This document shows positions 11,885-23,616 of a stretch of 24,000 bases of DNA, one piece after another. Each line of letters opens with the position of its first letter. Positions within the stretch are counted from its first letter, which is position 1. Source of the stretch: Arenimonas maotaiensis. Lineage in GTDB: Bacteria; Pseudomonadota; Gammaproteobacteria; Xanthomonadales; Xanthomonadaceae. Made by a program: the position numbers and the translations under genes. The notes below the pieces were generated by a model. That model was given only the letters and a program-made list of their open reading frames with translations. It was not told the DNA's origin and did no database searches. The stretch is from NCBI RefSeq assembly GCF_014638745.1, contig NZ_BMFO01000003.1:129052-153051 (forward strand), written 5' to 3'.

Positions 11885-11896
11885 GTTCCCGCCGGT

Positions 11897-12895
11897 TCAG
11901 TCGGCCGGCGGCGGCACGGCTTCGGCCGCCGTGTAGAACGCCACCAGCGCGCGCATCTCCTCCGCGCTGTAGGTGGTTTCCATTTTCCGGCGTGCGGCCT
12001 GGCCCAGCGCGGCGCGCAGATCCGGATCGTCCTTCAGCGCCAACAGCATCGCCGCCGCCTGTTCGCGGGTGTCGAACAGCAGACCGTCGGTGCCGTGCTC
12101 GATCCACTCGGCGTAGCCACCGCGCCGGTGCGCCACCACCGGGATGCCGCAGGCCATGGCTTCCATCACCACGCGCCCGGACGGCTCGACGCGCGCGTCG
12201 CTGCTGCGGAAATAGAAACAGTCCAGATGGCGCAGGAAGGCCTCCGGCGGCTCATGGCCGGCGGGCATCAGTTCGATCCCCGGCGTTTCGGCGAGTTGCG
12301 GCGCCAGCACCATGCCGCCCATGATGCGGACATGGCAGCCGCGTTGCGCCAGATGGCGGTACAGCGCGATGTCCGGCGCGTGGTGCTTGTCGGCGGTATC
12401 GCGCGACAGGCGGCCGATGCGGAACGCGCCGGGCGCCCGTTCGGATATCGGCCGGAAGCGCGTGAGGTCGATCGGCGAGGCATGCACGAAACCGGGCACG
12501 CCCACGGCGTCGCGCATCCAGGCCGCGGCATATACCATCTCGATGCGCGCGCCGAGCGCCGACAGCGCGATGGCGGTGGCGGTCAGGCGCCTGGGCGTCG
12601 GCGTGTTGTACAGCAGCACGGTGCGCCGGGCATGCGATGCCCGGAGCCAGTCGCCCGGAACCCGGTAGCAGCCGATGAACAGCAGGGTGCCGCCTTGCGG
12701 CAGCGATCCCGCCGCCGGATCGATGCGCTGCACCGGTACATAACGGCACAGCTCCGGATCCGGCGTGCTTTCGGACCAGATGCGCACATCGGCATGCGGC
12801 GCCAGCAGGCGGTACAGCTCGATGGTCCGCCACTCGCTGCCGCCGACCGCGTTCTCCATCGGGTTGATCAGGTGGATCACCGGTTTTTCCGTCAT
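11897..12895 (-). CDS. GT-B fold glycosyltransferase (family 1/4-like), 332 aa
   Basis: Only the C-terminal 332 aa of listed ORF 11897..14227 look real. They start at ATG 12893-12895 (MTEKPVIHLINP…). The E-x7-E motif EPSGRVVMEAMACGIPVV is present. The upstream 444 aa are Arg/Pro-rich and lie out of frame over the permease gene. An alternative start 18 nt upstream (MDAGAM…) cannot be excluded. Confidence 0.8.
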   Translation of the reverse strand: MTEKPVIHLINPMENAVGGSEWRTIELYRLLAPHADVRIWSESTPDPELCRYVPVQRIDPAAGSLPQGGTLLFIGCYRVPGDWLRASHARRTVLLYNTPTPRRLTATAIALSALGARIEMVYAAAWMRDAVGVPGFVHASPIDLTRFRPISERAPGAFRIGRLSRDTADKHHAPDIALYRHLAQRGCHVRIMGGMVLAPQLAETPGIELMPAGHEPPEAFLRHLDCFYFRSSDARVEPSGRVVMEAMACGIPVVAHRRGGYAEWIEHGTDGLLFDTREQAAAMLLALKDDPDLRAALGQAARRKMETTYSAEEMRALVAFYTAAEAVPPPAD

Positions 12896-12948
12896 TGCGC
12901 CTGCGTCCATGATGCCGTCGTCGTTAGTGTAGCCGCATCCGCTGAGCC

Positions 12949-14115
12949 TCAGCCCGAGACCGCCAGCTTCTCGTCGTGGTAACGGCGGGCCGCCAACCAC
13001 CACAGCACGGCGCCGAGGCCGAAGCCCGCGGCCAGATACACCGCCCATTCGGCGGACGAGACGCTTTCCGAACGCACGATCTTCAGGATCAGCTGGTTCT
13101 GCGACAGGAACGGCACCGCGAACTGCCAGAGCTGGTTCTTGATCGGATTGACCATCAGCACCACGGTCGGGATGATCGGCAGCATCATCAGCGCGCTCAT
13201 GTAGCTCTGCGCCTCCTTCACGCTCTTGGCGCCGGCGGCGATCAGGGTCAGCAGGCAGGTGCCGATCAGCACGATCGGCAGCAGCACCACCAGGATCTGG
13301 CCGACCGCGGCCCAGCCCATGCCCAGCTTCAGGCCCATGGCGCCGGCCACGACGAAGCTGCCCTTGAATGCCAGCAGCGTCAGCACCAGGCTGAACATGC
13401 CGAACACGCAGGCCGCCGCGATCTTGCCGCTCATGATCGCGCCGCGTGCGGCCGGCGTGGCCAGCAGCGGCTCCAAGGATTGCCGTTCGCGCTCGCCGGC
13501 GGTGGCGTCGATCACCAGATAGGCGCCGCCCAGGAAGCCGGACAGGATCAGCAGATAGGGCAGGAACGCCAAGGCCTGGCCGATGCGGCTTTCCGGCGTG
13601 GCCAAGTCCTTGCGTTCCACCAACACCGCCTGCCCCGCCGACGGACTGACGCCGCGCGCCAGCAGACGCAGGGCGCCGGCGCTGCGGCTGTAGTTGTCCA
13701 GCAATGCGTTCAGGCGTTCGGTCGGGATGCGGGCGTCGTCGCGCGAGCTGTCGCTGATGACCTCCACCGGCGCCGGTTCGCCGGCCCGCCATTTTTCGGC
13801 GTAGTCGGCGGGAATCGACAGGATGACCTCGACGTTCTGCGCCGCGATCTCGCCCTCCGGGTTGGCCGGCGCCGGCTTGATCAGCACATTGCGGCCGGAT
13901 AGCCAGTTGATCAGGTTCGGCGCGCGTTCGGCGCCGATCACCGGCAGCTCCAGCGGCTTCTCCAATTGGGTCGACATGCGGTTGTTGGCCAGCTTGGCCA
14001 TGCCCAGGATCAGCAGCGGCGCCAGCAGGGTGAATGCCAACGAGATGGCGATGGTCTTGCGGTCGCGGAACAGGTCGAGCAGTTCCTTGCGCATCACGGT
14101 GATGAGTGCGTTCAT
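12949..14115 (-). CDS. ABC-2-type transporter permease, NatB-like (large extracytoplasmic loop after TM1), 388 aa
   Basis: True start is ATG 14113-14115 (MNALITVMRKELLDLFRDRKT…), which overlaps the ATPase stop as ATGA. One N-terminal TM helix, a hydrophilic loop of about 190 aa, then five or six hydrophobic helices. The listed ORF 12949..14298 is over-extended. Confidence 0.85.
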   Translation of the reverse strand: MNALITVMRKELLDLFRDRKTIAISLAFTLLAPLLILGMAKLANNRMSTQLEKPLELPVIGAERAPNLINWLSGRNVLIKPAPANPEGEIAAQNVEVILSIPADYAEKWRAGEPAPVEVISDSSRDDARIPTERLNALLDNYSRSAGALRLLARGVSPSAGQAVLVERKDLATPESRIGQALAFLPYLLILSGFLGGAYLVIDATAGERERQSLEPLLATPAARGAIMSGKIAAACVFGMFSLVLTLLAFKGSFVVAGAMGLKLGMGWAAVGQILVVLLPIVLIGTCLLTLIAAGAKSVKEAQSYMSALMMLPIIPTVVLMVNPIKNQLWQFAVPFLSQNQLILKIVRSESVSSAEWAVYLAAGFGLGAVLWWLAARRYHDEKLAVSG

Positions 14116-14858
14116 GCGTGGAAACCCTCCTCGCTGCCGATGATCTTGACGAAGGCCTCTTCCAGGTTGGCCTCCCCGGTCTGCGCGCGCAGTTCGTCGG
14201 CCGTGCCGTCGGCCATGACCTTGCCATGCGCGATCACCACGATGCGGTCGCACAGCGCGGCGACCTCCTGCATGATGTGGCTGGAGAAGATGACGCACCG
14301 TCCTTCGGCCTTCAGCTGCTTGAGGAACTCGCGCAGGGCGCGCGTGGTCATCACGTCCAGGCCGTTGGTCGGTTCGTCCAGGATCACGTTTTTCGGATCA
14401 TGGATCAGCGCGCGCGCGATCGCGGTCTTGGTGCGTTGGCCCTGCGAGAAGCCTTCGCACTGGCGGTCGAGGATGTCCTCCATGCCCAGCGACGCGGCCA
14501 GGCGGGCGATGCCCTGGTCGATGGCGGCCTCGGTCATGCCGTGCAGGCGGCCGAAGTAGCGGATGTTCTCGCGCGCGGTCAGGCGTTTGTACACGCCGCG
14601 GGCGTCCGGCAGCACGCCCAGGCGCGCGCGCACGTCGCCGGCGTGGGTGTCGGGCGAGAAGCCGTCGACCGCGATGCGGCCGGCGTCCGGCGACATCAGG
14701 GTATACAGCATGCGCAGGGTGGTGGTCTTGCCGGCGCCGTTCGGGCCGAGCAGGCCGGTGATCTCCCCGTCGCGGGCGTGGAAGCCCACGCCTTGGACGG
14801 CATGCACCGTTCCGGTCTTGGTGGTGAAGCGTTTATGCAAATCGGTGACGTCGATCAT
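14112..14858 (-). CDS. ABC transporter ATP-binding protein (NatA-like)
   Basis: Walker A GPNGAGKTT. Signature-like FSQGQRTK. Walker B VILDEPTNGLD. H-loop SSHIM. ATG at 14856-14858, 10 nt after the hydrolase stop, with a GAGGAA ribosome-binding site. Confidence 0.95.
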   Translation of the reverse strand: MIDVTDLHKRFTTKTGTVHAVQGVGFHARDGEITGLLGPNGAGKTTTLRMLYTLMSPDAGRIAVDGFSPDTHAGDVRARLGVLPDARGVYKRLTARENIRYFGRLHGMTEAAIDQGIARLAASLGMEDILDRQCEGFSQGQRTKTAIARALIHDPKNVILDEPTNGLDVMTTRALREFLKQLKAEGRCVIFSSHIMQEVAALCDRIVVIAHGKVMADGTADELRAQTGEANLEEAFVKIIGSEEGFHA

Positions 14859-14868
14859 GTCGGTTTCC

Positions 14869-16413
14869 TCAGGGTTCCCAGCCGTAATAGCCGGTGAACG
14901 GCGATGCGTAGGTGAGCCTGTCCATGCAGGCGGCGTCGAGCGCTTTCGGATCGGCGCTTTCCAGGAAGCGGGCGTACAGCTTCGGCATGCAGCCCACCGG
15001 CAGCACGTTGTGGCCGGTGCCCTTGGCCACGATGTGGCGGGCGTTGCCCAGGTGCTTCATCACCAGGTCGCCGTAGCGCGGCGGCGTGACCGGGTCGAAT
15101 TCGCCCGAGAGCACCAGCACCGGCAGCTTGCCGGTCAGCGGCGCGCGGTAGTCGGCCGGGCGCGGCTTGTGCGGCCACACCGCGCACTGCGCCTGCATCA
15201 GCTCCACCAATCCGGTGCCGAGCAGGCGCGTGCGGTCTTCCGGATCCACTTTCAGGTCCGGCGCGTCCTCGGAGCACATCACCGACAGCTGCATGCCGTG
15301 CATGATCTGGTCGGAGATGTCGCGGGTGAGCATTTCGCTTAAACCCATCAGCGCATCGACGTGGCCTTGGTTGCCTTCGCTGAACAGCAGCGGCAGCACG
15401 CCCGCCGCCTGCGGCGCATAGGCCAGCATGCGCGTCAGCATCGCCACATGGCCGGCGCTGAACTGGCCGTCGCGCCATTCGCCGGTCAGCGCGTCGCGGT
15501 AACGCACCGGCACCGGGCCTTTGGCCAGGGTCGCCATCAGTTTGTCCAGCTGCGCGCGCGGGTCGCCCATTTTGGCACGGCAGGCCGCGTCGGCGCTGCA
15601 ACGGGTGAACTGCAGGTCGAGCGAGGCCTCCAGGTTCTTGGCGTGATCCTGGCCGAGCACGGTCTCCAGCGGCGCCACGCCGTCGAGCACCACCGTGCGC
15701 GTGCTGGCCGGATAGCGCTTGGCGTACAGCTGCGCCATGCGCGTGCCGTAGGAGATGCCGATCAGGTTGATCTGCGCGGCGCCGATCGCCTTGCGCGCGA
15801 GATCCAGGTCCTGGATGGCGTCGCTGCTGCTGAACTGGCGCACGTCCACTTTGCCCGCGTACTGCGCCGCGCAGCGTTCGGCGAAGGCGGCGGCCGAGGC
15901 CGCGCTGTAGTCCTCGTCTTCCACCACCGCGCTTCGGCCGTCGGCGTCCACGCATTTGAGCGGATGGGAATCGCCGGTGCCGCGCTGGTCGAGCAGGATG
16001 ATGTGGCGCGATTTGCGCGCCTCGGCGAAAGCGCCGGCGATGCCCGGGAAGCTTTCGCGCGCGCCCTGGCCGGGGCCGCCGGCCAGCATGAAGATCGGGT
16101 CGTCTTCGGCGTCGCGCGTGGCCGGCAGCCAGGCGATGGCCAGCTTCAGCTTCCGACCGTCCGGTTTGCTGTGGTCTTCCGGCACCTGCAGCTCGCCGCA
16201 GAACGCCATCAGCGCGTCGGTGCCGCGCGCCAGGGTGCAGGGCTGGAAACGGATGCCGCCCAGCGTACGGCCGAGGTCGACCGCGGCCACCGCCGCTTTC
16301 GGTTTCGGTGCGTCGGCGTCTTTGCCGCCGTCGGACAGATACGGTTTGGCGATCCAGGCCGCGGCGGCGATGACCACCGCCGCGCGCAGCCCGTTCCGGT
16401 ATTTGGCTTGCAT
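14869..16413 (-). CDS. Secreted/anchored alpha/beta hydrolase, S33 TAP-like (tripeptidyl-aminopeptidase-type) family, 514 aa
   Basis: Real start is ATG 16411-16413 (MQAKYRNGLRAAVVIAAAAWIA…, a signal/anchor sequence), preceded by GGAGGAG. Nucleophile elbow GISYG with Ser codon at 15751-15753. The C-terminal PVLVLSGEFDPVTP and GTGHNV are typical of TAP-like hydrolases. The listed ORF 14869..16719 is over-extended. Confidence 0.85.
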   Translation of the reverse strand: MQAKYRNGLRAAVVIAAAAWIAKPYLSDGGKDADAPKPKAAVAAVDLGRTLGGIRFQPCTLARGTDALMAFCGELQVPEDHSKPDGRKLKLAIAWLPATRDAEDDPIFMLAGGPGQGARESFPGIAGAFAEARKSRHIILLDQRGTGDSHPLKCVDADGRSAVVEDEDYSAASAAAFAERCAAQYAGKVDVRQFSSSDAIQDLDLARKAIGAAQINLIGISYGTRMAQLYAKRYPASTRTVVLDGVAPLETVLGQDHAKNLEASLDLQFTRCSADAACRAKMGDPRAQLDKLMATLAKGPVPVRYRDALTGEWRDGQFSAGHVAMLTRMLAYAPQAAGVLPLLFSEGNQGHVDALMGLSEMLTRDISDQIMHGMQLSVMCSEDAPDLKVDPEDRTRLLGTGLVELMQAQCAVWPHKPRPADYRAPLTGKLPVLVLSGEFDPVTPPRYGDLVMKHLGNARHIVAKGTGHNVLPVGCMPKLYARFLESADPKALDAACMDRLTYASPFTGYYGWEP

Positions 16414-16415
16414 GT

Positions 16416-16607
16416 TCACTCCTCCATGAAAATCGATTCGATCGGCAACCCGAACAGCCGCGCGATCTTGAATGCCAGCTTGATGCTGGGGTCGTATTTT
16501 TCCGTCTCGATGGCGTTCACCGTCTGCCGCGACACCTCCAGCCGGTCGGCCAGCTCGGCCTGCGACCAGCCGAATTGCTCGCGCAGCTGGCGGACCCGGC
16601 TTTTCAC
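16416..16607 (-). CDS. Mini XRE-family helix-turn-helix transcriptional regulator (63 aa)
   Basis: The translation …GWSQAELADRLEVSRQTVNAIETEKYDPSIKLAFKIARLFGLPIESIF is the widespread family of about 65 aa usually found next to small multi-TM proteins. GTG start at 16605-16607 overlaps the upstream stop (GTGA). Confidence 0.9.
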   Translation of the reverse strand: MKSRVRQLREQFGWSQAELADRLEVSRQTVNAIETEKYDPSIKLAFKIARLFGLPIESIFMEE

Positions 16608-16999
16608 GCGCGGTACCGCCAGATCCCGATGTAGCGGGTGACGATATAGACCAGGCCGATGACCAACACCAGCACCGACAGCATCTCGCGTGCATCCAGG
16701 CCCAATACCCGGAAGTCATGCAGCAGCAGCAGGCTGTAGCCCGCGAGAAGACCGGTCATTGAGGACAGCGCCATGGCGTCCATTTCGATCTTGCGTTCCA
16801 GCTCGTCGCATTCGCCCAGATAGCGGAAGTAAAGCCAGAAAATCCAGGCCAAGGGCGCCAGCGGCAGCACGGCCAGTCCGGCTTTGGCCGCCTGCGACGG
16901 CATCGACGGCGCCATCAGATACGCCGCGACGGTCAGCCCGACGCACAGCAGGCCCGGCACGATGGATTTCAGGTAATAGCGTTTCAGCGGCGCGCGCAT
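16604..16999 (-). CDS. Four-TM membrane protein, paralog B (131 aa), YLGECDE motif
   Basis: Four hydrophobic helices. Motif YLGECDE at nt 16802-16822, in the loop between TM2 and TM3. Ends …WRYRA. The stop overlaps the XRE start. Confidence 0.7.
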   Translation of the reverse strand: MRAPLKRYYLKSIVPGLLCVGLTVAAYLMAPSMPSQAAKAGLAVLPLAPLAWIFWLYFRYLGECDELERKIEMDAMALSSMTGLLAGYSLLLLHDFRVLGLDAREMLSVLVLVIGLVYIVTRYIGIWRYRA

Positions 17000-17009
17000 G
17001 CCGGGCGCC

Positions 17010-17444
17010 TCAGCGGTAACGGCGAACGGCCTGCCATTTGGTCAGGCCGTAGAAGCCGCACAGCGACGGGAATACCCAGATGGCGACGGTGCCGCCGCCC
17101 ACGGTGAACACGCCGGCCTGGATCAGGAAGCCGATCGACAGGAACAGCAGGCCGACGATCAGGCTGGCCAAGGCGATGGCTTCCAGTTCGACGTGTCGGA
17201 TCATTTCGTCGCATTCGCCCAAGTAGGCCACCAGCGCCTTGCCCAGCAAGGCCACCGGCACCACCGGAGCCAATGCCAGCAGGGCCTTCGCGCCGGCGGG
17301 CCAGTCCGCGGCCACGCCGCGCAACAGCAGGATCGAGCCGAACAGCAGGGCGACATAGGCGCTCATGGTGGCCACGACCCGGCGTGTGTAACGGATTTCG
17401 GCCGCGGTGCGCGGTCGGAAGCATGAGGTGTCGGTGTCGGCCAT
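17010..17444 (-). CDS. Four-TM membrane protein, paralog A (144 aa), YLGECDE motif
   Basis: Four hydrophobic helices. Motif YLGECDE at nt 17205-17225. Ends …VRRYR. ATG at 17442-17444 is preceded by GGGGGA. There are 10 nt between its stop and the paralog B start. Confidence 0.7.
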   Translation of the reverse strand: MADTDTSCFRPRTAAEIRYTRRVVATMSAYVALLFGSILLLRGVAADWPAGAKALLALAPVVPVALLGKALVAYLGECDEMIRHVELEAIALASLIVGLLFLSIGFLIQAGVFTVGGGTVAIWVFPSLCGFYGLTKWQAVRRYR

Positions 17445-17455
17445 GGCAGTCCCCC

Positions 17456-17473
17456 TGTAAAGTCGACTTTACA
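17456..17473. promoter_or_regulatory. Perfect 18-bp palindrome TGTAAAGTCGACTTTACA, candidate operator of the XRE operon
   Basis: The sequence is exactly self-complementary. It lies 12-29 nt upstream of the first start codon of the operon. Confidence 0.5.
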
Positions 17474-17509
17474 TAAGACTGCATGATTAAAGTGGTAGTG
17501 TCAAGCGTG

Positions 17510-17517
17510 CTTTACAT
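17510..17517. promoter_or_regulatory. Third copy of the operator half-site (CTTTACAT), next to a TTGACA -35-like hexamer
   Basis: The 8-mer CTTTACAT occurs at 17467-17474 (right arm of the palindrome plus 1 nt) and again at 17510-17517. TTGACA on the minus strand lies at 17499-17504, between the two sites. Confidence 0.4.
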
Positions 17518-17622
17518 TTTTGTTTCTGATGCGGAGCCTGAACCGGATAAATCGTTCTTCTCATTGGAAAAACGCCGGATTCCGGTCAGAATCGGGACAT
17601 AACGGGATGCTCAGGGAAGGCT

Positions 17623-20418
17623 ATGCCGCTCAGTTGGAACGAAATCAAAAACCGCGCCCTTGCCTTCGCCAAGGAGTGGGACGGCGAAGCCTCCGAACAC
17701 GCCAACGCCAAGCCGTTCTGGGATGACTTCTTCAACGTCTTCGGGATTACCCGCAAGCGTGTGGCGGCCTTCGAGGAGCCGGTCAAGAAACTGGGCGACA
17801 AGCAGGGCTTCATCGACCTGTTCTGGAAAGGTGTGTTGCTGGTCGAGCACAAGTCGCGCGGCAAGGACCTGGACAAGGCCTATACGCAGGCTCTGGATTA
17901 TTTTCCCGGCATCCCCGAGCGCGATCTGCCGAAGTATGTGCTGGTTTCCGACTTCGCCCGGTTCCGCCTGTACGATCTGGAGGAAAACACCCAGCTTGAG
18001 TTCGCGCTGGGTGATTTGCATAAAAACGTACAGGCATTCGGCTTCATCGCCGGCTACCAGACGCATAAAATCAAGGAACAGGACCCGGTCAACATCAAAG
18101 CCGCCGAGCGTATGGGCCGGCTGCACGACCAGATGAAGGCGGTGGGCTATGACGGCCACGCCCTGGAGCACTACCTGGTCCGCCTGCTGTTCTGCCTGTT
18201 CGCCGAGGACACCGGCATCTTCGAGCGCCGGCAGTTCCAGGATTACATCGAGCAGAAGACCCACGAAGACGGCTCCGATCTGGCGCACCACATGGCCACG
18301 CTGTTCCACGTGCTGAACCAGGAGCAGGGCAAGCGCCTGAAGAACCTCGACGAGCAGTTGGCGGCTTTTCCCTATGTCAACGGCAAGCTGTTCGCCGAAC
18401 CCTTGCCGCCGGCCAGTTTCGATTCGGCGATGCGGCAGGCGCTGCTGGATTGTTGCGCACTGGACTGGAGCCGCATTTCGCCGGCCATCTTCGGCTCGCT
18501 GTTCCAGTCGATCATGGACAAGAAGGCCCGCCGCAACCTGGGCGCGCATTACACCAGCGAAAAGAACATCCTCAAGCTCATCAAGCCGCTGTTCCTGGAC
18601 GAGCTGTGGCAGGAGTTCGAGTCGGTCAAGTCCAACAAGCAGAAGCTGTTCGCCTTCCATGAAAAGCTGCGTGCGCTGAAGTTCCTCGATCCGGCCTGCG
18701 GTTGCGGTAACTTCCTGGTCATCGCCTACCGCGAACTGCGCCTGCTGGAGCTGGAAGTGCTGCGGGTGCGCTTCAAGACCAACGAGAAGTCCGGGCAGAC
18801 CGAAAACATCCAGACCATGATCCTGCTGGACGTGGACCAGTTCTACGGCATCGAGATCGAGGAATTCCCGGCACAGATCGCGCAGGTGGCCTTGTGGCTG
18901 ATGGACCACCAGATCAACCTGAAGATCTCCGAAGAGTTCGGCGAATACTTCGCGCGCATTCCCCTGCGTTCCAGCGGTAGCATCGTGTGCGCCAATGCCC
19001 TGCGCCTAGATTGGAACGATGTGGTTCCGGCCAAGGAATTAAGCTACATCCTCGGCAATCCGCCGTTTATCGGCGCGAAATTCATGGATGACGCGCAGCG
19101 CGCCGATGTGGCTGAGGTTTTCGACAACATCAAAAATGCCGGCCTGCTTGATTTCGTGGCAGCGTGGTATGTGAAAGCGGCAAAAATGATGCAGGGCACG
19201 TCCATTCGTTGTGCCTTCGTTTCCACGAATTCCATCGTTCAGGGCGAGCAGGTCGGCGTTTTATGGAGTTGGATGCTGGCCAATGGCGTAAAAATCTTCT
19301 TTGCCCATCGCACCTTCTCCTGGAATAACGAAGCGCGCGGCAAAGCCGCCGTGCATTGCGTGATAATCGGGTTTGCGTTGAACGACATTTCACCGAAATG
19401 GCTGTTCGAGTACGAAGATATCAAGGGCGAAGCACATCGCGTGCAAGTAAAGAATATCAATCCCTATTTGGTCGATGCGCCGAATATCGTGCTATTCAAT
19501 CGCTCAAAACCTTTATGCGATGTTCCCGGAATTGGAATTGGCAACAAGCCGATTGATGGCGGATATTACTTGTTTTCAGATTTTGAAATGGCGGATTTCA
19601 TTAAAGCAAATCCTGATTCCAAGATTTGGTTCAAGAAATGGCTTGGAGCTGATGAATTTATTAATGGCTGGCAAAGGTGGTGCTTGTTCATACGAGATAT
19701 GCCGCCAAATGAAATGCAGGCTAACCCGGCAATTTTGGGCATTATTGATAAGGTCAGAAATTATCGACTTGGCTTGATTCCAGCAAGAAATGCCGCAACC
19801 GATAAAGAGCCAAAGGTTGGCCAAAGTGCAAAACAGCTTGCGGCCACGCCAACACGGTTTCATGTTGAAAAAGTTTCCGATACAACCCAACTTATTATCC
19901 CGTCCGTATCGTCAGAAAAGCGGAATTACATTCCGATTGGATTTGAGCCAGAGACAACGCTTTGCAGCAATCTTGTGTTTGTTGCGGTTAATGCAAACTT
20001 ATTCCATTTCGGAATACTGAATTCAACAATGCATAATGCGTGGATGAGAGTGGTTTCTGGACGGCTTAAAAGTGACTACCGATATTCTGCCGGCATTGTC
20101 TATAACAATTTTCCATGGCCCGAAAATCCAAGTGCCAAGCACAAACAGGCGATAGAAGAGGCTGCGCAGGCGGTTTTGGATGCCCGCGCCCAATTCCCGG
20201 ATTCCACCTTGGCCGATCTGTACGATCCGCTGACCATGCCACCTGTATTGCTGAAAGCGCACCAGGCACTGGATAAGGCCGTGGACGCGGCGTACGGCAA
20301 GACCAATTTCAAGAGCGAGGCCGAGCGCGTGGCGTTTTTGTTTGAGCGATATCAATCGCTTGATTCAATATTAGCTAGCCGGACAGTCAAACCAAACCGC
20401 AACAAGTCAGCAACCTGA
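17623..20418 (+). CDS. MmeI-family Type IIL (IIG) single-polypeptide restriction endonuclease / N6-adenine DNA methyltransferase, 931 aa
   Basis: The N-terminal MPLSWNEIKNRALAFAKEW…AKPFWDDFFNVFGITRKRVAAFE matches MmeI as I remember it. D-x9-E-x-K nuclease motif (DLFWKGVLLVEHK) at nt 17815-17853. SAM motif I FLDPACGCGNFLV at 18682-18720. Catalytic NPPF at 19057-19068. The size and domain order match MmeI (919 aa). Confidence 0.9.
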   Translation: MPLSWNEIKNRALAFAKEWDGEASEHANAKPFWDDFFNVFGITRKRVAAFEEPVKKLGDKQGFIDLFWKGVLLVEHKSRGKDLDKAYTQALDYFPGIPERDLPKYVLVSDFARFRLYDLEENTQLEFALGDLHKNVQAFGFIAGYQTHKIKEQDPVNIKAAERMGRLHDQMKAVGYDGHALEHYLVRLLFCLFAEDTGIFERRQFQDYIEQKTHEDGSDLAHHMATLFHVLNQEQGKRLKNLDEQLAAFPYVNGKLFAEPLPPASFDSAMRQALLDCCALDWSRISPAIFGSLFQSIMDKKARRNLGAHYTSEKNILKLIKPLFLDELWQEFESVKSNKQKLFAFHEKLRALKFLDPACGCGNFLVIAYRELRLLELEVLRVRFKTNEKSGQTENIQTMILLDVDQFYGIEIEEFPAQIAQVALWLMDHQINLKISEEFGEYFARIPLRSSGSIVCANALRLDWNDVVPAKELSYILGNPPFIGAKFMDDAQRADVAEVFDNIKNAGLLDFVAAWYVKAAKMMQGTSIRCAFVSTNSIVQGEQVGVLWSWMLANGVKIFFAHRTFSWNNEARGKAAVHCVIIGFALNDISPKWLFEYEDIKGEAHRVQVKNINPYLVDAPNIVLFNRSKPLCDVPGIGIGNKPIDGGYYLFSDFEMADFIKANPDSKIWFKKWLGADEFINGWQRWCLFIRDMPPNEMQANPAILGIIDKVRNYRLGLIPARNAATDKEPKVGQSAKQLAATPTRFHVEKVSDTTQLIIPSVSSEKRNYIPIGFEPETTLCSNLVFVAVNANLFHFGILNSTMHNAWMRVVSGRLKSDYRYSAGIVYNNFPWPENPSAKHKQAIEEAAQAVLDARAQFPDSTLADLYDPLTMPPVLLKAHQALDKAVDAAYGKTNFKSEAERVAFLFERYQSLDSILASRTVKPNRNKSAT

Positions 20419-20442
20419 ACAATTTCAAGCAAAACTTGTAAT

Positions 20443-20457
20443 CTATATAAAATATAG
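20443..20457. promoter_or_regulatory. Inverted repeat CTATAT-AAA-ATATAG in the AT-rich leader of the DUF4258 gene (candidate promoter/operator)
   Basis: The palindrome lies 11 nt upstream of ATG 20468. TATAAA at 20446-20451 is -10-like. TTGTAA at 20436-20441 is -35-like. Confidence 0.3.
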
Positions 20458-20467
20458 GTAATCTTGC

Positions 20468-20809
20468 ATGGCAAAAGCCAAAAAGCCCAAAAAAGCGGTT
20501 GCCCGGATTGCGCTGACAACGGCGAATGCATCACGGATCATCAGGCGCTTGGCGCAGGATTCCAATGCGGTTTACTTCACCGATCATGCCAGTAAACGGA
20601 TGGCGCAGAGGAAAGTGACCCGCCCGCAGGTGATGGAATGTCTGATGAAGGGCGCCATAACGGAAGGACCGGCGCTTGATATCAAGGGATGCTGGAAGGT
20701 TACGGTCAGCCGGGCCGTATGCGGAGATGGAATTGATGTGGTGCTTGCTTTGGATTGGGATGCGGAAAGCGCCAGTTACGTGGTTGTCGTGACGGTCATT
20801 AGGGATTGA
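20468..20809 (+). CDS. DUF4258-family protein (putative toxin of a type II TA-like pair), 113 aa
   Basis: The segment …VYFTDHASKRMAQRKVTRPQVMECLMKG… matches the DUF4258 signature (f..HA..Rm.eR.i). The N-terminus is Lys-rich. Its stop lies 4 nt before the next ATG. Confidence 0.75.
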   Translation: MAKAKKPKKAVARIALTTANASRIIRRLAQDSNAVYFTDHASKRMAQRKVTRPQVMECLMKGAITEGPALDIKGCWKVTVSRAVCGDGIDVVLALDWDAESASYVVVVTVIRD

Positions 20810-20813
20810 TTTT

Positions 20814-21263
20814 ATGTTTCATTACGTTGACTGCGGATTGTTGAATGTGTGGCTTTCGAATGGTTACAAGACCATCGATACGCCCTATGGACGTGCTACC
20901 GCCATCGAGGATGTCGCCGGTCTGCACCGCGCCATCGGCACTCAGCTGGCAAGGGAGAAGCGGCATCTTTCCGGCCGTGAATTCCGCTTTTTACGCAAAG
21001 AGCTCGGGCTGTCGCAGGAAATGCTCGGGCAGTGGCTGGGTTACACCGACGGGCAGCAGATCGCCAAGTGGGAAAAATCGGCCCGGGTGCCTAGATTGCA
21101 GGACGGCGTGCTTCGTCAGCTCTATCTGGAGTCGATCAATGAGAAGAACGCGCAGTTCACCGCCATATTGAGGCGCCTGCAGGAAATCGATGCGAGCAAC
21201 CACAACGCCAAATTGGTTTTCACCGAGAGCGCCAAGAAGGGCTGGACTTCCAAAGTGGCGTGA
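20814..21263 (+). CDS. MqsA/YgiT-family HTH antitoxin-like protein lacking the zinc-ribbon cysteines, 149 aa
   Basis: The segment FHYVDCGLLNVWLSNGY…IEDVAGLHRAIGTQLAREKRHLSGREFRFLRKELGLSQEMLGQWLGY…IAKWEK follows the YgiT-type pattern (Y..SGL.NV.L…C..CGE…LH..IA…LTG.EIRFLRK.LG.S). The CxxC pairs are absent: the protein starts after the first pair, and the second is replaced by DTPYGR. AGGGA ribosome-binding site 8 nt upstream. Confidence 0.75.
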   Translation: MFHYVDCGLLNVWLSNGYKTIDTPYGRATAIEDVAGLHRAIGTQLAREKRHLSGREFRFLRKELGLSQEMLGQWLGYTDGQQIAKWEKSARVPRLQDGVLRQLYLESINEKNAQFTAILRRLQEIDASNHNAKLVFTESAKKGWTSKVA

Positions 21264-21306
21264 TCGCCTGCAGGGCGTATAGCCATTACGCTGAAACGTT
21301 TCCGCC

Positions 21307-21334
21307 ATCATTTTGTTGGCGTCAACAAAATGAT
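21307..21334. repeat. AT-rich perfect hairpin/palindrome ATCATTTTGTTG-GCGT-CAACAAAATGAT between convergent genes
   Basis: 12-bp arms at 21307-21318 and 21323-21334 with a 4-nt loop. The right arm ends on the first base of the stop codon of the 21334..21834 gene. No U-tract follows on either strand. Confidence 0.6.
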
Positions 21335-22689: not shown

Positions 22690-23616
22690 ATGACCCAGCC
22701 CGCGCTTGCCATCCAATCCTTGCACAAGACCTACGACAACGGCGTGAAGGCGCTGAAGGGCGTCTCGCTCGAGGTCGCGCCCGGCGATTTCTTCGCCCTG
22801 CTGGGCCCGAACGGCGCCGGCAAATCGACCCTGATCGGCGTGGTCAGCTCGCTGGTCAACCCGAGTTCGGGCTCGGTGTCGGTGTTCGGCATCGACCTGA
22901 TGGCCGACCGCTCGGGCGCCATGCGCCAGATCGGCCTGGTGCCGCAGGAAATCAACTTCAACATGTTCGAGAAGCCGATCGACATCCTGGTCAATTACGC
23001 CGGCTTCTACGGCGTGCCGCGCGCCGAGGCGCTGCTGCGCGCCGAGAAGCAGCTGAAGGCCGCCCAGCTGTGGGAGAAGGCCGAGGTGATGAGCCGCACC
23101 CTGTCCGGCGGCATGAAGCGCCGGTTGATGATCGCCCGCGCGATGATGACCGAACCCAAGCTGCTGATCCTGGACGAGCCGACCGCCGGCGTCGACATCG
23201 AGATCCGCCGCGGCATGTGGAAGACCCTGCAGGAAGTGAACGCGGCCGGCACCACGGTGATCCTGACCACGCACTACCTGGAAGAGGCCGAGAGCCTGTG
23301 CCGCAACCTGGCCATCATCGACAAAGGCACCATCATCGAACAGGGGCCGATGAAAGCCCTGCTCGCCAAGCTGGATGTGGAAGGCTTCGTGCTCGACATC
23401 GACGGCGGACTGCCGGCCGAATTGCCGGCCATCGCCGGCGTCGAGCTGAAAGCCGCCGACAGCCACACCCTGGTGGCCGAAAAGCCGCGCGACCTGCCGC
23501 TGAACGACCTGTTCGAGGCGCTGGCCCGGGCCGGCATCACCGTGCGTTCGATGCGCAACCAGAGCAACCGGCTGGAAGAGCTGTTCGTGCGCCTGACCGC
23601 GAAGGAGGCCGCATGA
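22690..23616 (+). CDS. yadG: ABC transporter ATP-binding protein YadG (308 aa)
   Basis: Same length as E. coli YadG and near-collinear with it as I remember it (…LLGPNGAGKST…LVPQE.NFN.FE…LSGGMKRRLMIARA…EPKLLILDEPTAGVDIE.RR.MW…GTT.ILTTHYLEEAE.LCRN…RLEELFV). Confidence 0.9.
   Translation: MTQPALAIQSLHKTYDNGVKALKGVSLEVAPGDFFALLGPNGAGKSTLIGVVSSLVNPSSGSVSVFGIDLMADRSGAMRQIGLVPQEINFNMFEKPIDILVNYAGFYGVPRAEALLRAEKQLKAAQLWEKAEVMSRTLSGGMKRRLMIARAMMTEPKLLILDEPTAGVDIEIRRGMWKTLQEVNAAGTTVILTTHYLEEAESLCRNLAIIDKGTIIEQGPMKALLAKLDVEGFVLDIDGGLPAELPAIAGVELKAADSHTLVAEKPRDLPLNDLFEALARAGITVRSMRNQSNRLEELFVRLTAKEAA

Follow-up and report, generated by a model that had tools for sequence, protein, structure and literature searches.

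The six genes described here lie on the minus strand of a 24,000-nucleotide (nt) stretch of DNA from Arenimonas maotaiensis (contig NZ_BMFO01000003.1; this whole stretch is hereafter called the window), whose genome is that of an Arenimonas-like member of the order Xanthomonadales. They encode two small membrane proteins with four transmembrane (TM) helices each, a very short regulator of the XRE family, a predicted serine hydrolase and the two components of an ABC-2 exporter. Our preferred reading, to which we assign a probability of about 0.55, is that the locus is a switch of the CylR1/CylR2 type fused to a conserved hydrolase/exporter operon, the membrane proteins and the XRE protein forming the switch. 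What would be new is the attachment of CylR1/CylR2-type regulation to a widespread, uncharacterised trio of hydrolase, ATPase and permease genes.

Gene boundaries were taken from the table of open reading frames and from direct reads of the sequence. In the order of transcription, the genes are those of TM_A (17010-17444; 144 amino acids (aa), a four-helix membrane protein), its paralogue TM_B (16604-16999; 131 aa), XRE (16416-16607; 63 aa, a single-domain XRE/HTH_3 protein of the CylR2 family), the S33 hydrolase (14869-16413; 514 aa, with a TAP-like C-terminal domain), the ABC ATPase (14112-14858; 248 aa, DrrA/NatA-like) and the ABC-2 permease (12949-14115; 388 aa, ABC2_membrane_3). The junctions are tight throughout. 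Ten nt separate TM_A from TM_B, and the hydrolase gene from that of the ATPase; the TM_B stop and the XRE start share a GTGA, the ATPase and permease genes an ATGA. Between XRE and the hydrolase gene the gap is 2 nt, and becomes a GTGA overlap if the GTG located two codons upstream is the start. An earlier note on this DNA had listed these five junctions, and every value matches the table and the sequence; its domain calls also hold in Pfam and NCBIfam scans (HTH_3, Abhydrolase_1/TAP-like, ABC_tran and ABC2_membrane_3), and the two four-TM proteins that it took for paralogues are confirmed as such (BLASTP 5e-11, with 47% identity over the central motif). The single operon that it proposed is supported by the coupled junctions behind one operator-bracketed promoter. 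The six genes very probably form one operon, with a single operator-controlled promoter and, presumably, a single transcript.

This arrangement goes beyond chance, since both the gene order, with overlapping or short junctions, and the operator pair described below recur, the former in more than 50 loci from four families. In 30 of 33 linked loci from these four families, the first possible start of the hydrolase either overlaps with the stop of XRE or follows within 66 nt, and outright overlap is found in many loci and in each of the four families. Because the two genes overlap or nearly touch, the trio in fused loci has probably lost a promoter of its own and depends on the switch.

A predicted promoter of the sigma-70 type, whose elements were recognised from their conservation, lies upstream of TM_A between two operators on the minus strand. 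The distal operator TGTAAAGCACGCTTGACA (17499-17516) holds in its 3' half a perfect -35 element, TTGACA (17504->17499). A candidate weak -10 element, CAGTCT (17476-17481), proposed from conservation and keeping A2 and T6, follows 17 nt past the -35. The proximal operator TGTAAAGTCGACTTTACA (17456-17473), a perfect palindrome of 18 base pairs (bp), begins 2 nt past the -10 and so lies over the predicted transcription start; 11 nt separate its end from the TM_A start codon. Centre to centre, the two operators are 43 bp apart. The one upstream palindrome of the earlier note is thus real and perfect; the second site, at 17499-17516, turns out to be a full operator rather than a half-site, which makes two.

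All fetched loci were scanned with TGTAAAG-N4-CTTTACA, allowing up to three mismatches. At least one site is present in all 46 TM-XRE loci, and in 40 of these there are two, spaced by 43-47 bp and placed immediately ahead of the first TM gene. The resulting consensus, TGT(A/C)AAG-N4-CTT(T/G)ACA, lies over the -35 and the +1 of the cassette's own promoter. Outside the order, the pair is found in four of five TM-XRE loci, the fifth having a single weak site with three mismatches. On the other hand, about 290 kilobases (kb) of TM-less control loci yielded a single weak match, far from the trio; the same scan gave no operator near the trio in 20 TM-less loci, and none 5' of the unlinked hydrolase genes in the fetched loci. 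The distal operator reads TGTAAAG-N4-CTTGACA, in the same orientation, in each of 38 aligned loci, its last six bases being the consensus -35. In these alignments a weak -10 (elsewhere TATCGT, CATTCT or TAGCCT) stands 17-18 nt past the -35, and the proximal operator starts 1-2 nt past the -10, hence over the predicted start site. The first start codon comes about 10-25 nt further on, in the window and in most loci whose TM protein has no N-terminal extension.

In the complete window genome (2.16 megabases), the two sites are the only matches at one mismatch or fewer. With this operator found at no other promoter of the genome, read-through is the only way in which XRE can here control the hydrolase and exporter genes. 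A second operator ahead of the hydrolase was considered and rejected, as no site lies between XRE and the hydrolase in any locus scanned. Of five genomes with a stand-alone cassette, four have the motif at essentially no place other than the cassette, one of them having one extra site with one mismatch.

The XRE protein is a mini-repressor of the CylR2 type by its size, its HTH_3 domain (Pfam, 3e-18) and its similarity to the CylR2 structures (Protein Data Bank (PDB) entries 1utx/2xiu; E 2.6e-13 over 57 residues, 5-61). It is presumed to act as a dimeric autorepressor at its own promoter. PDB entry 9k3w, a 65-aa regulator of the PbsX family, is closer still than CylR2 (E 1.6e-21 over nearly the full length); no paper on it was found in the literature searched, and its source organism and gene neighbours could yield a direct structural model for XRE. 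With 63 aa, XRE is too short to include a ligand-binding domain, and the signal must therefore arrive via a partner. The proposed candidate is the membrane protein, whose gene is always found directly upstream of XRE, also in other orders. XRE is 56-97% identical across all TM-XRE loci, its TM partner often just 25-45%. For the pairing of a mini-XRE with a small membrane protein, which the earlier note had pointed out, there is a signal-transducing precedent in which the repressor, CylR2, is homologous to XRE (PMC3709268). CylR2 is a repressor that binds its own promoter; induction in response to the signal requires the small membrane protein CylR1, and how this works is still unsolved (PMC3709268; bioRxiv 10.1101/2024.08.13.607848).

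The AlphaFold model of TM_A consists of four long helices (predicted local distance difference test, pLDDT, of 80). By hydropathy and the positive-inside rule, three parts of the protein face the cytoplasm, namely the N-terminus (RYTRR), the loop after TM2 (ECDEMIRHVELEA) and the C-terminus (RRYR), and the periplasmic loops are left with just 7-12 residues. The cytoplasmic loop carries an acidic motif, DE(L/M)xRxI, in which Asp79 and Glu80 are 100% conserved in 90 distinct members of the family. This DE-motif loop is the most conserved segment (mean entropy of 1.54 bits versus 2.2-2.65), and the periplasmic loops are the most variable ones. A sensor whose output face is fixed and whose input can change would be expected to show such a pattern.

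The locus was also compared with that of the closest relative, an Arenimonas metagenome-assembled genome (G009, locus L016). The XRE, hydrolase, ATPase and permease genes of the two are 95-98% identical in DNA. The TM_A gene is missing in the relative, and TM_B differs from the allele found there (L016:10036-10431) to the extent that the two share only 54% aa and 64% nt identity, with 60 non-synonymous versus 19 synonymous codon differences. Conserved between the two alleles are the 30 nt at either end and the central motif, while differences in both TM hairpins approach saturation. Arenimonas genomes carry one or the other of two TM_B allele types, and the divergence points to allelic replacement by recombination rather than to point mutation in place. 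The tandem of TM_A and TM_B is found in other genera. By indel, allele swap and recurrent duplication, the TM genes are the plastic part of the locus. Many TM proteins of families f1 and f12 carry two additional N-terminal TM helices. Three loci of family f12 (L060, L068 and L086) have an extra TM paralogue between XRE and the hydrolase, giving the order TM-XRE-TM-hydrolase and a junction of 450-540 nt.

The hydrolase is a member of peptidase family S33, of the TAP-like type, by its fold (PF00561 Abhydrolase_1, 2.7e-18), its C-terminal domain (PF08386 TAP-like Abhydrolase_4, 4.6e-16) and its triad of Ser221 (GISYG), Asp440 (DPVTP) and His468 (GTGHN); catalysis is predicted. The motifs GxSYG, DP[VIA]TP and GH are kept wherever the segment is present (52, 64 and 64 of 64 loci, respectively). 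Over 400 residues, triad included, the protein aligns with Hip1/CaeA (PDB 5ugq family, 1.5e-27). At its N-terminus, residues 11-23 form a hydrophobic segment with no clear cleavage site, on which a simple hydropathy scan made no call. Orthologues begin with a Sec signal, a lipobox or an anchor helix that leads into an Ala/Pro-rich linker, and the hydrolase is therefore predicted to act outside the cytoplasm.

The exporter was described in the earlier note as NatAB-like, and its architecture bears this out. The ATPase matches PF00005 ABC_tran (2.2e-30), staying below every curated NCBIfam cut-off, and is 50-98% identical to its counterparts in the trios of other genomes, except for one doubtful locus at 41%. 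The permease matches PF12698 ABC2_membrane_3 (1.3e-17) and has six TM helices; the loop that joins TM1 to TM2, 137 aa long, is periplasmic. Among NCBIfam models the permease comes closest, though below cut-off (6.5e-60), to the N-terminal half of NF041647, 'ABC permease/CPBP intramembrane protease'; this fusion appears to be a second, independent pairing of such a permease with a peptidase. Our best guess for the substrate of the trio is a membrane-associated, peptide-like compound, because the partnership of exporter and extracytoplasmic serine hydrolase is conserved and because of the CPBP-fusion relatives. No publication on the trio or on the CPBP/ABC-2 fusion relatives was found in the literature searched.

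To what extent the switch and the trio belong together was addressed by surveying the two halves of the locus separately. The genome samples were draws in which relatives are not independent, and 18-kb contexts were fetched; a search for related loci by TM alignment used narrow patterns and returned Xanthomonadaceae only. The profile of the four-TM family detects members in 95 of 301 genomes of the order, in 38 of 87 genera, and in 5 of about 397 genomes from other gammaproteobacterial orders. An orthologue of the hydrolase (E < 1e-60) is present in 283 of the 301 genomes, with 39-55% identity in the matches listed outside the genus. The ABC pair directly follows the hydrolase gene in each of the in-order loci fetched and, outside the order, in 12 of 13 permease-carrying genomes. 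In families f1, f3, f11 and f12, every TM locus (32 loci) consists of one or two TM copies, XRE, hydrolase, ATPase and permease. The full block is also found in every one of the 26 loci of a named collection whose contig reaches far enough; its carriers there are Arenimonas, Luteimonas, Thermomonas, Lysobacter, Pseudoxanthomonas and Aerolutibacter, many with a tandem of TM_A and TM_B types.

Elsewhere the two units occur apart. Families f2, f6, f7, f8 and f9 contribute 12 loci in which TM-XRE stands alone among unrelated neighbours. Eleven of these 12 genomes have the hydrolase elsewhere, at about 92-96 kb from the cassette on the same contig in two of them (G049 and G036), and the twelfth, an assembly that is 87% complete, gave no match. 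Outside the order, the five TM loci likewise consist of TM-XRE with no hydrolase, and two of the genomes concerned hold the trio on another contig. Conversely, the trio is intact and tightly packed, with no TM or XRE gene upstream, in all 20 TM-negative genomes fetched, five of which belong to the genus of the window; in one of these 20 (G158), a degenerate XRE fragment persists, which points to loss. In a tree of the ATPase and permease, which largely follows the families, linked and unlinked states are interspersed and well-supported branches force at least nine changes. A single origin of the fused state was rejected on this ground. Linkage has repeatedly been gained or, more likely, lost.

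The trio is thus an older, near-core unit, present without this switch in most relatives, and TM-XRE a separate accessory regulatory cassette that is stably fused to it in four families. The earlier note had seen in the six genes a self-contained module; this is not supported, given a trio present in 283 of 301 genomes and free of the switch in all 20 TM-negative genomes fetched, and cassettes alone or unlinked to the trio in 12 and 5 loci within and outside the order. Its proposal that a neighbourhood survey might show hydrolase and ABC genes to be conserved partners of TM/XRE meets a largely independent distribution, the exception being the stable fusion in four families. That it did not recognise the combination is in line with the literature searched, where no description was found. 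Within the genus, five genomes (L116-L120) carry a switch-less trio lineage with 42-47% hydrolase identity to the window. It branches, with full support, outside the clade in which the switch-linked lineage of the genus groups with other f1 genera. The genus thus holds two deep trio lineages, which suggests transfer of one version or an over-broad genus.

The mechanism that we favour is as follows. XRE dimers would occupy both operators and shut off the promoter, so as to repress XRE itself and both four-TM genes; the S33 hydrolase and the ABC-2 exporter, expressed by read-through, would be repressed along with them. The four-TM proteins would be the signal partner and, because their periplasmic loops are very short, would sense within the membrane. 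Once engaged, their cytoplasmic DE motif (Asp79-Glu80) would hold or alter XRE and relieve repression, by analogy with CylR1/CylR2 and SdpI/SdpR. The output would be more sensor, an exported serine hydrolase of predicted activity and the exporter, the latter two most likely removing or processing a membrane-associated peptide-like compound. Regulation of the trio by the cassette is the best reading for the four fused families; the anti-repressor action of the membrane proteins and the role in detoxification or peptide processing are what we infer from it. A bolder version, which we hold to be tentative and rather doubtful, would make the locus a phosphorelay-free intramembrane two-protein switch, the Gram-negative counterpart of CylR1/CylR2 and SdpI/SdpR. 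Here the hypervariable, exchangeable TM hairpins would set the specificity for membrane-active peptides or lipopeptides and the invariant cytoplasmic DE motif would capture the repressor, the whole being wired, in Xanthomonadales, to a conserved machine in which the ABC-2 exporter would extract such compounds from the membrane and the S33 hydrolase would cleave them.

Several observations weigh against the switch and mechanism just proposed. The four-TM family has no usable match in Pfam, NCBIfam, PADLOC or PHROGs, with distant members searched at E values up to 10, and the TM_A model has no PDB match at E < 1 in Foldseek. The -10 element is weak, and a consensus promoter scan made no call at this promoter. 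The trio is near-core and often occurs without this switch, which argues for a housekeeping role rather than inducible detoxification; a housekeeping task put under inducible control in some lineages is what this argues for. Finally, stand-alone cassettes have no operator elsewhere in their genome, so their sole output is the membrane protein itself, and this fits a membrane protein that is an effector as well as one that is a sensor.

The last point leads to the rival that survives best, in which the membrane protein is the effector, for instance in immunity or membrane stress, with XRE as its dedicated autorepressor, and the downstream trio is functionally unrelated and has its own expression. 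With the cassette occurring alone and the operator nowhere else, the regulated products would be TM and XRE only, and both the presence of the trio without the cassette in most genomes and the nine or more gains or losses of linkage would follow naturally. What makes us regard this as unlikely is the situation in the four families, where the cassette is always at one site, directly upstream of the trio, and where the XRE/hydrolase overlap, in many loci of all four, leaves no room for a trio promoter.

A toxin-antitoxin-like or addiction cassette, made of a membrane toxin and an XRE antitoxin/repressor that lies beside the trio by chance, is in our opinion improbable. Such a cassette would have two genes and tight autoregulation, as here, and its patchy spread (95 of 301 genomes within the order and 5 of about 397 in the rest of the class), the fast divergence and allele swaps of the membrane gene and a weak, sub-threshold match of XRE to antitoxins of the Y4mF/HipB type could all be accommodated. 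However, XRE is a bare 63-aa helix-turn-helix (HTH) without a toxin-binding extension; it reaches 41.4 bits with TIGR03070, for a cut-off of 71.65, and stays below cut-off with HigA, HipB and MqsA. The TM protein has no PADLOC or PHROG match. In addition, the insertion site is fixed over four families with no mobile-element genes adjoining, and tandem TM paralogues are kept in several genera. A type II toxin-antitoxin system with an XRE antitoxin was rejected for the models falling below cut-off and for the absence of a toxin match for TM.

Least probable of all, and very much so, is that the ABC pair is a NatAB-type exporter of sodium or another ion under XRE control with the hydrolase as an unrelated passenger. 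NatA/NatB likewise combine an ATPase with a six-TM ABC2_membrane_3 permease whose first loop is large, but no NCBIfam equivalog cut-off is reached and the best curated match of the permease is to CPBP-protease-fused permeases, again with a peptidase as partner. Moreover, the hydrolase gene directly precedes the ABC pair in all in-order loci fetched and in 12 of 13 from other orders, a constancy that marks it as an obligate partner.

The unit ends with the permease. A gene for a GT4-type glycosyltransferase (11887-12948; Glycos_transf_1, 2.7e-17) follows after 53 nt, a spacing given correctly in the earlier note, or after 38 nt if the in-frame ATG at 12910 is the start. In the closest relative, this gene is absent and replaced by about 70 bp, the flanking DNA being 90-93% identical, and no counterpart lies 3' of the permease in any other locus examined. 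The glycosyltransferase was rejected as a seventh member of the operon, being an indel between close relatives without synteny elsewhere. On the other side, positions 17522-21333 hold an MmeI-type restriction-modification gene and a toxin-antitoxin-like pair, an insertion in whose place the closest relative has about 20 bp between flanks that are 91-96% identical. Further away, a second ABC ATPase is encoded on the plus strand (22711-23370), 28% identical to that of the operon. A second ABC ATPase and ABC-2 permease are found divergently upstream of the trio, with or without the cassette, in most genomes of the order, so that two ABC-2 systems make up a conserved neighbourhood. In most other genomes, the element upstream of the trio or cassette is a divergent yadGH-like ABC transporter, and in TM-less loci this space often also holds an FNR-like oxidoreductase of about 250 aa.

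In the literature, CylR1/CylR2 figures as an enigmatic way of signalling that is restricted to the enterococcal cytolysin and its close analogues. In Xanthomonadales, among which are plant pathogens and Lysobacter used in biocontrol, a homologous mini-repressor, again with a small membrane protein as its partner, occurs commonly. No paper linking CylR2 with Xanthomonadales genera was found in the literature searched. The sharply defined layout of operators and promoter and the single target make the proposed mechanism easily testable in cultured strains, among which Lysobacter daejeonensis GH1-9, Luteimonas vadosa JCM 18392 and Aerolutibacter ruishenii CGMCC 1.10136 carry the fused locus, and the swaps of sensor genes between near-identical genomes hint at shifting signal specificity. 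The survey also brings to light the hydrolase/ABC-2 trio, present in about 94% of the sampled genomes of the order and scattered in other Gammaproteobacteria.

Several known systems resemble the cargo. Hip1/CaeA (Rv2224c) of Mycobacterium tuberculosis and Tap, SlpD and SlpE of Streptomyces have the same hydrolase and TAP-like domain and are exported or envelope-associated; their relationship to the window hydrolase is remote, and the latter is always encoded with an ABC-2 exporter, a partner that we do not know of for Hip1 or Tap. The exporter resembles NatAB of Bacillus subtilis in combining an ATPase with a six-TM permease that has a large extracytoplasmic loop after TM1. It differs from NatAB in its best curated match, to permease-CPBP protease fusions, and in its conserved hydrolase partner, which argues for a substrate other than Na+.

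For the switch, a membrane sensor that works without phosphorelay and controls an ABC-2-type exporter is exemplified by BcrR, of the BcrR-BcrAB system of Enterococcus faecalis, in which an XRE-type HTH and four TM helices form one polypeptide. In the window these are separate proteins, with genes overlapping by GTGA, and ten longer homologues (about 195-270 aa), inspected for a fusion of HTH and TM, add TM helices and no HTH; a BcrR-type one-component sensor was rejected on these two grounds. In SdpR/SdpI of Bacillus subtilis, an autorepressed two-gene operon, a polytopic membrane protein that meets a membrane-active peptide sequesters the repressor and thus induces itself. This logic fits the stand-alone cassettes, whose one operator is their own. 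SdpR is of the ArsR type and not an XRE protein, SdpI is larger and unrelated, and no toxin gene is known at the window locus.

Closest to the switch among all known systems is CylR1/CylR2, from the cytolysin locus of Enterococcus faecalis, together with BibR1/BibR2 of Bacillus thuringiensis. As in the window, the gene for a small multi-TM protein stands beside that for a single-domain XRE repressor of about 65 aa, the repressor has its site at its own promoter region (a predicted site in our case) and no phosphorelay is involved. CylR1 is predicted to have three TM helices instead of four, and the likeness of the window proteins to it is an analogy of gene adjacency and topology. The host here is Gram-negative and there are no lanthipeptide genes. 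Among the genes under CylR1/CylR2 control are those for an ABC exporter and for a serine protease that acts outside the cell (PMC3709268), a likeness to the cargo of the window. The cytolysin cargo is divergently transcribed, whereas that of the window is co-directional and translationally coupled, consists of a near-core hydrolase/ABC-2 trio, and is preceded by a cassette that is also found cargo-free.

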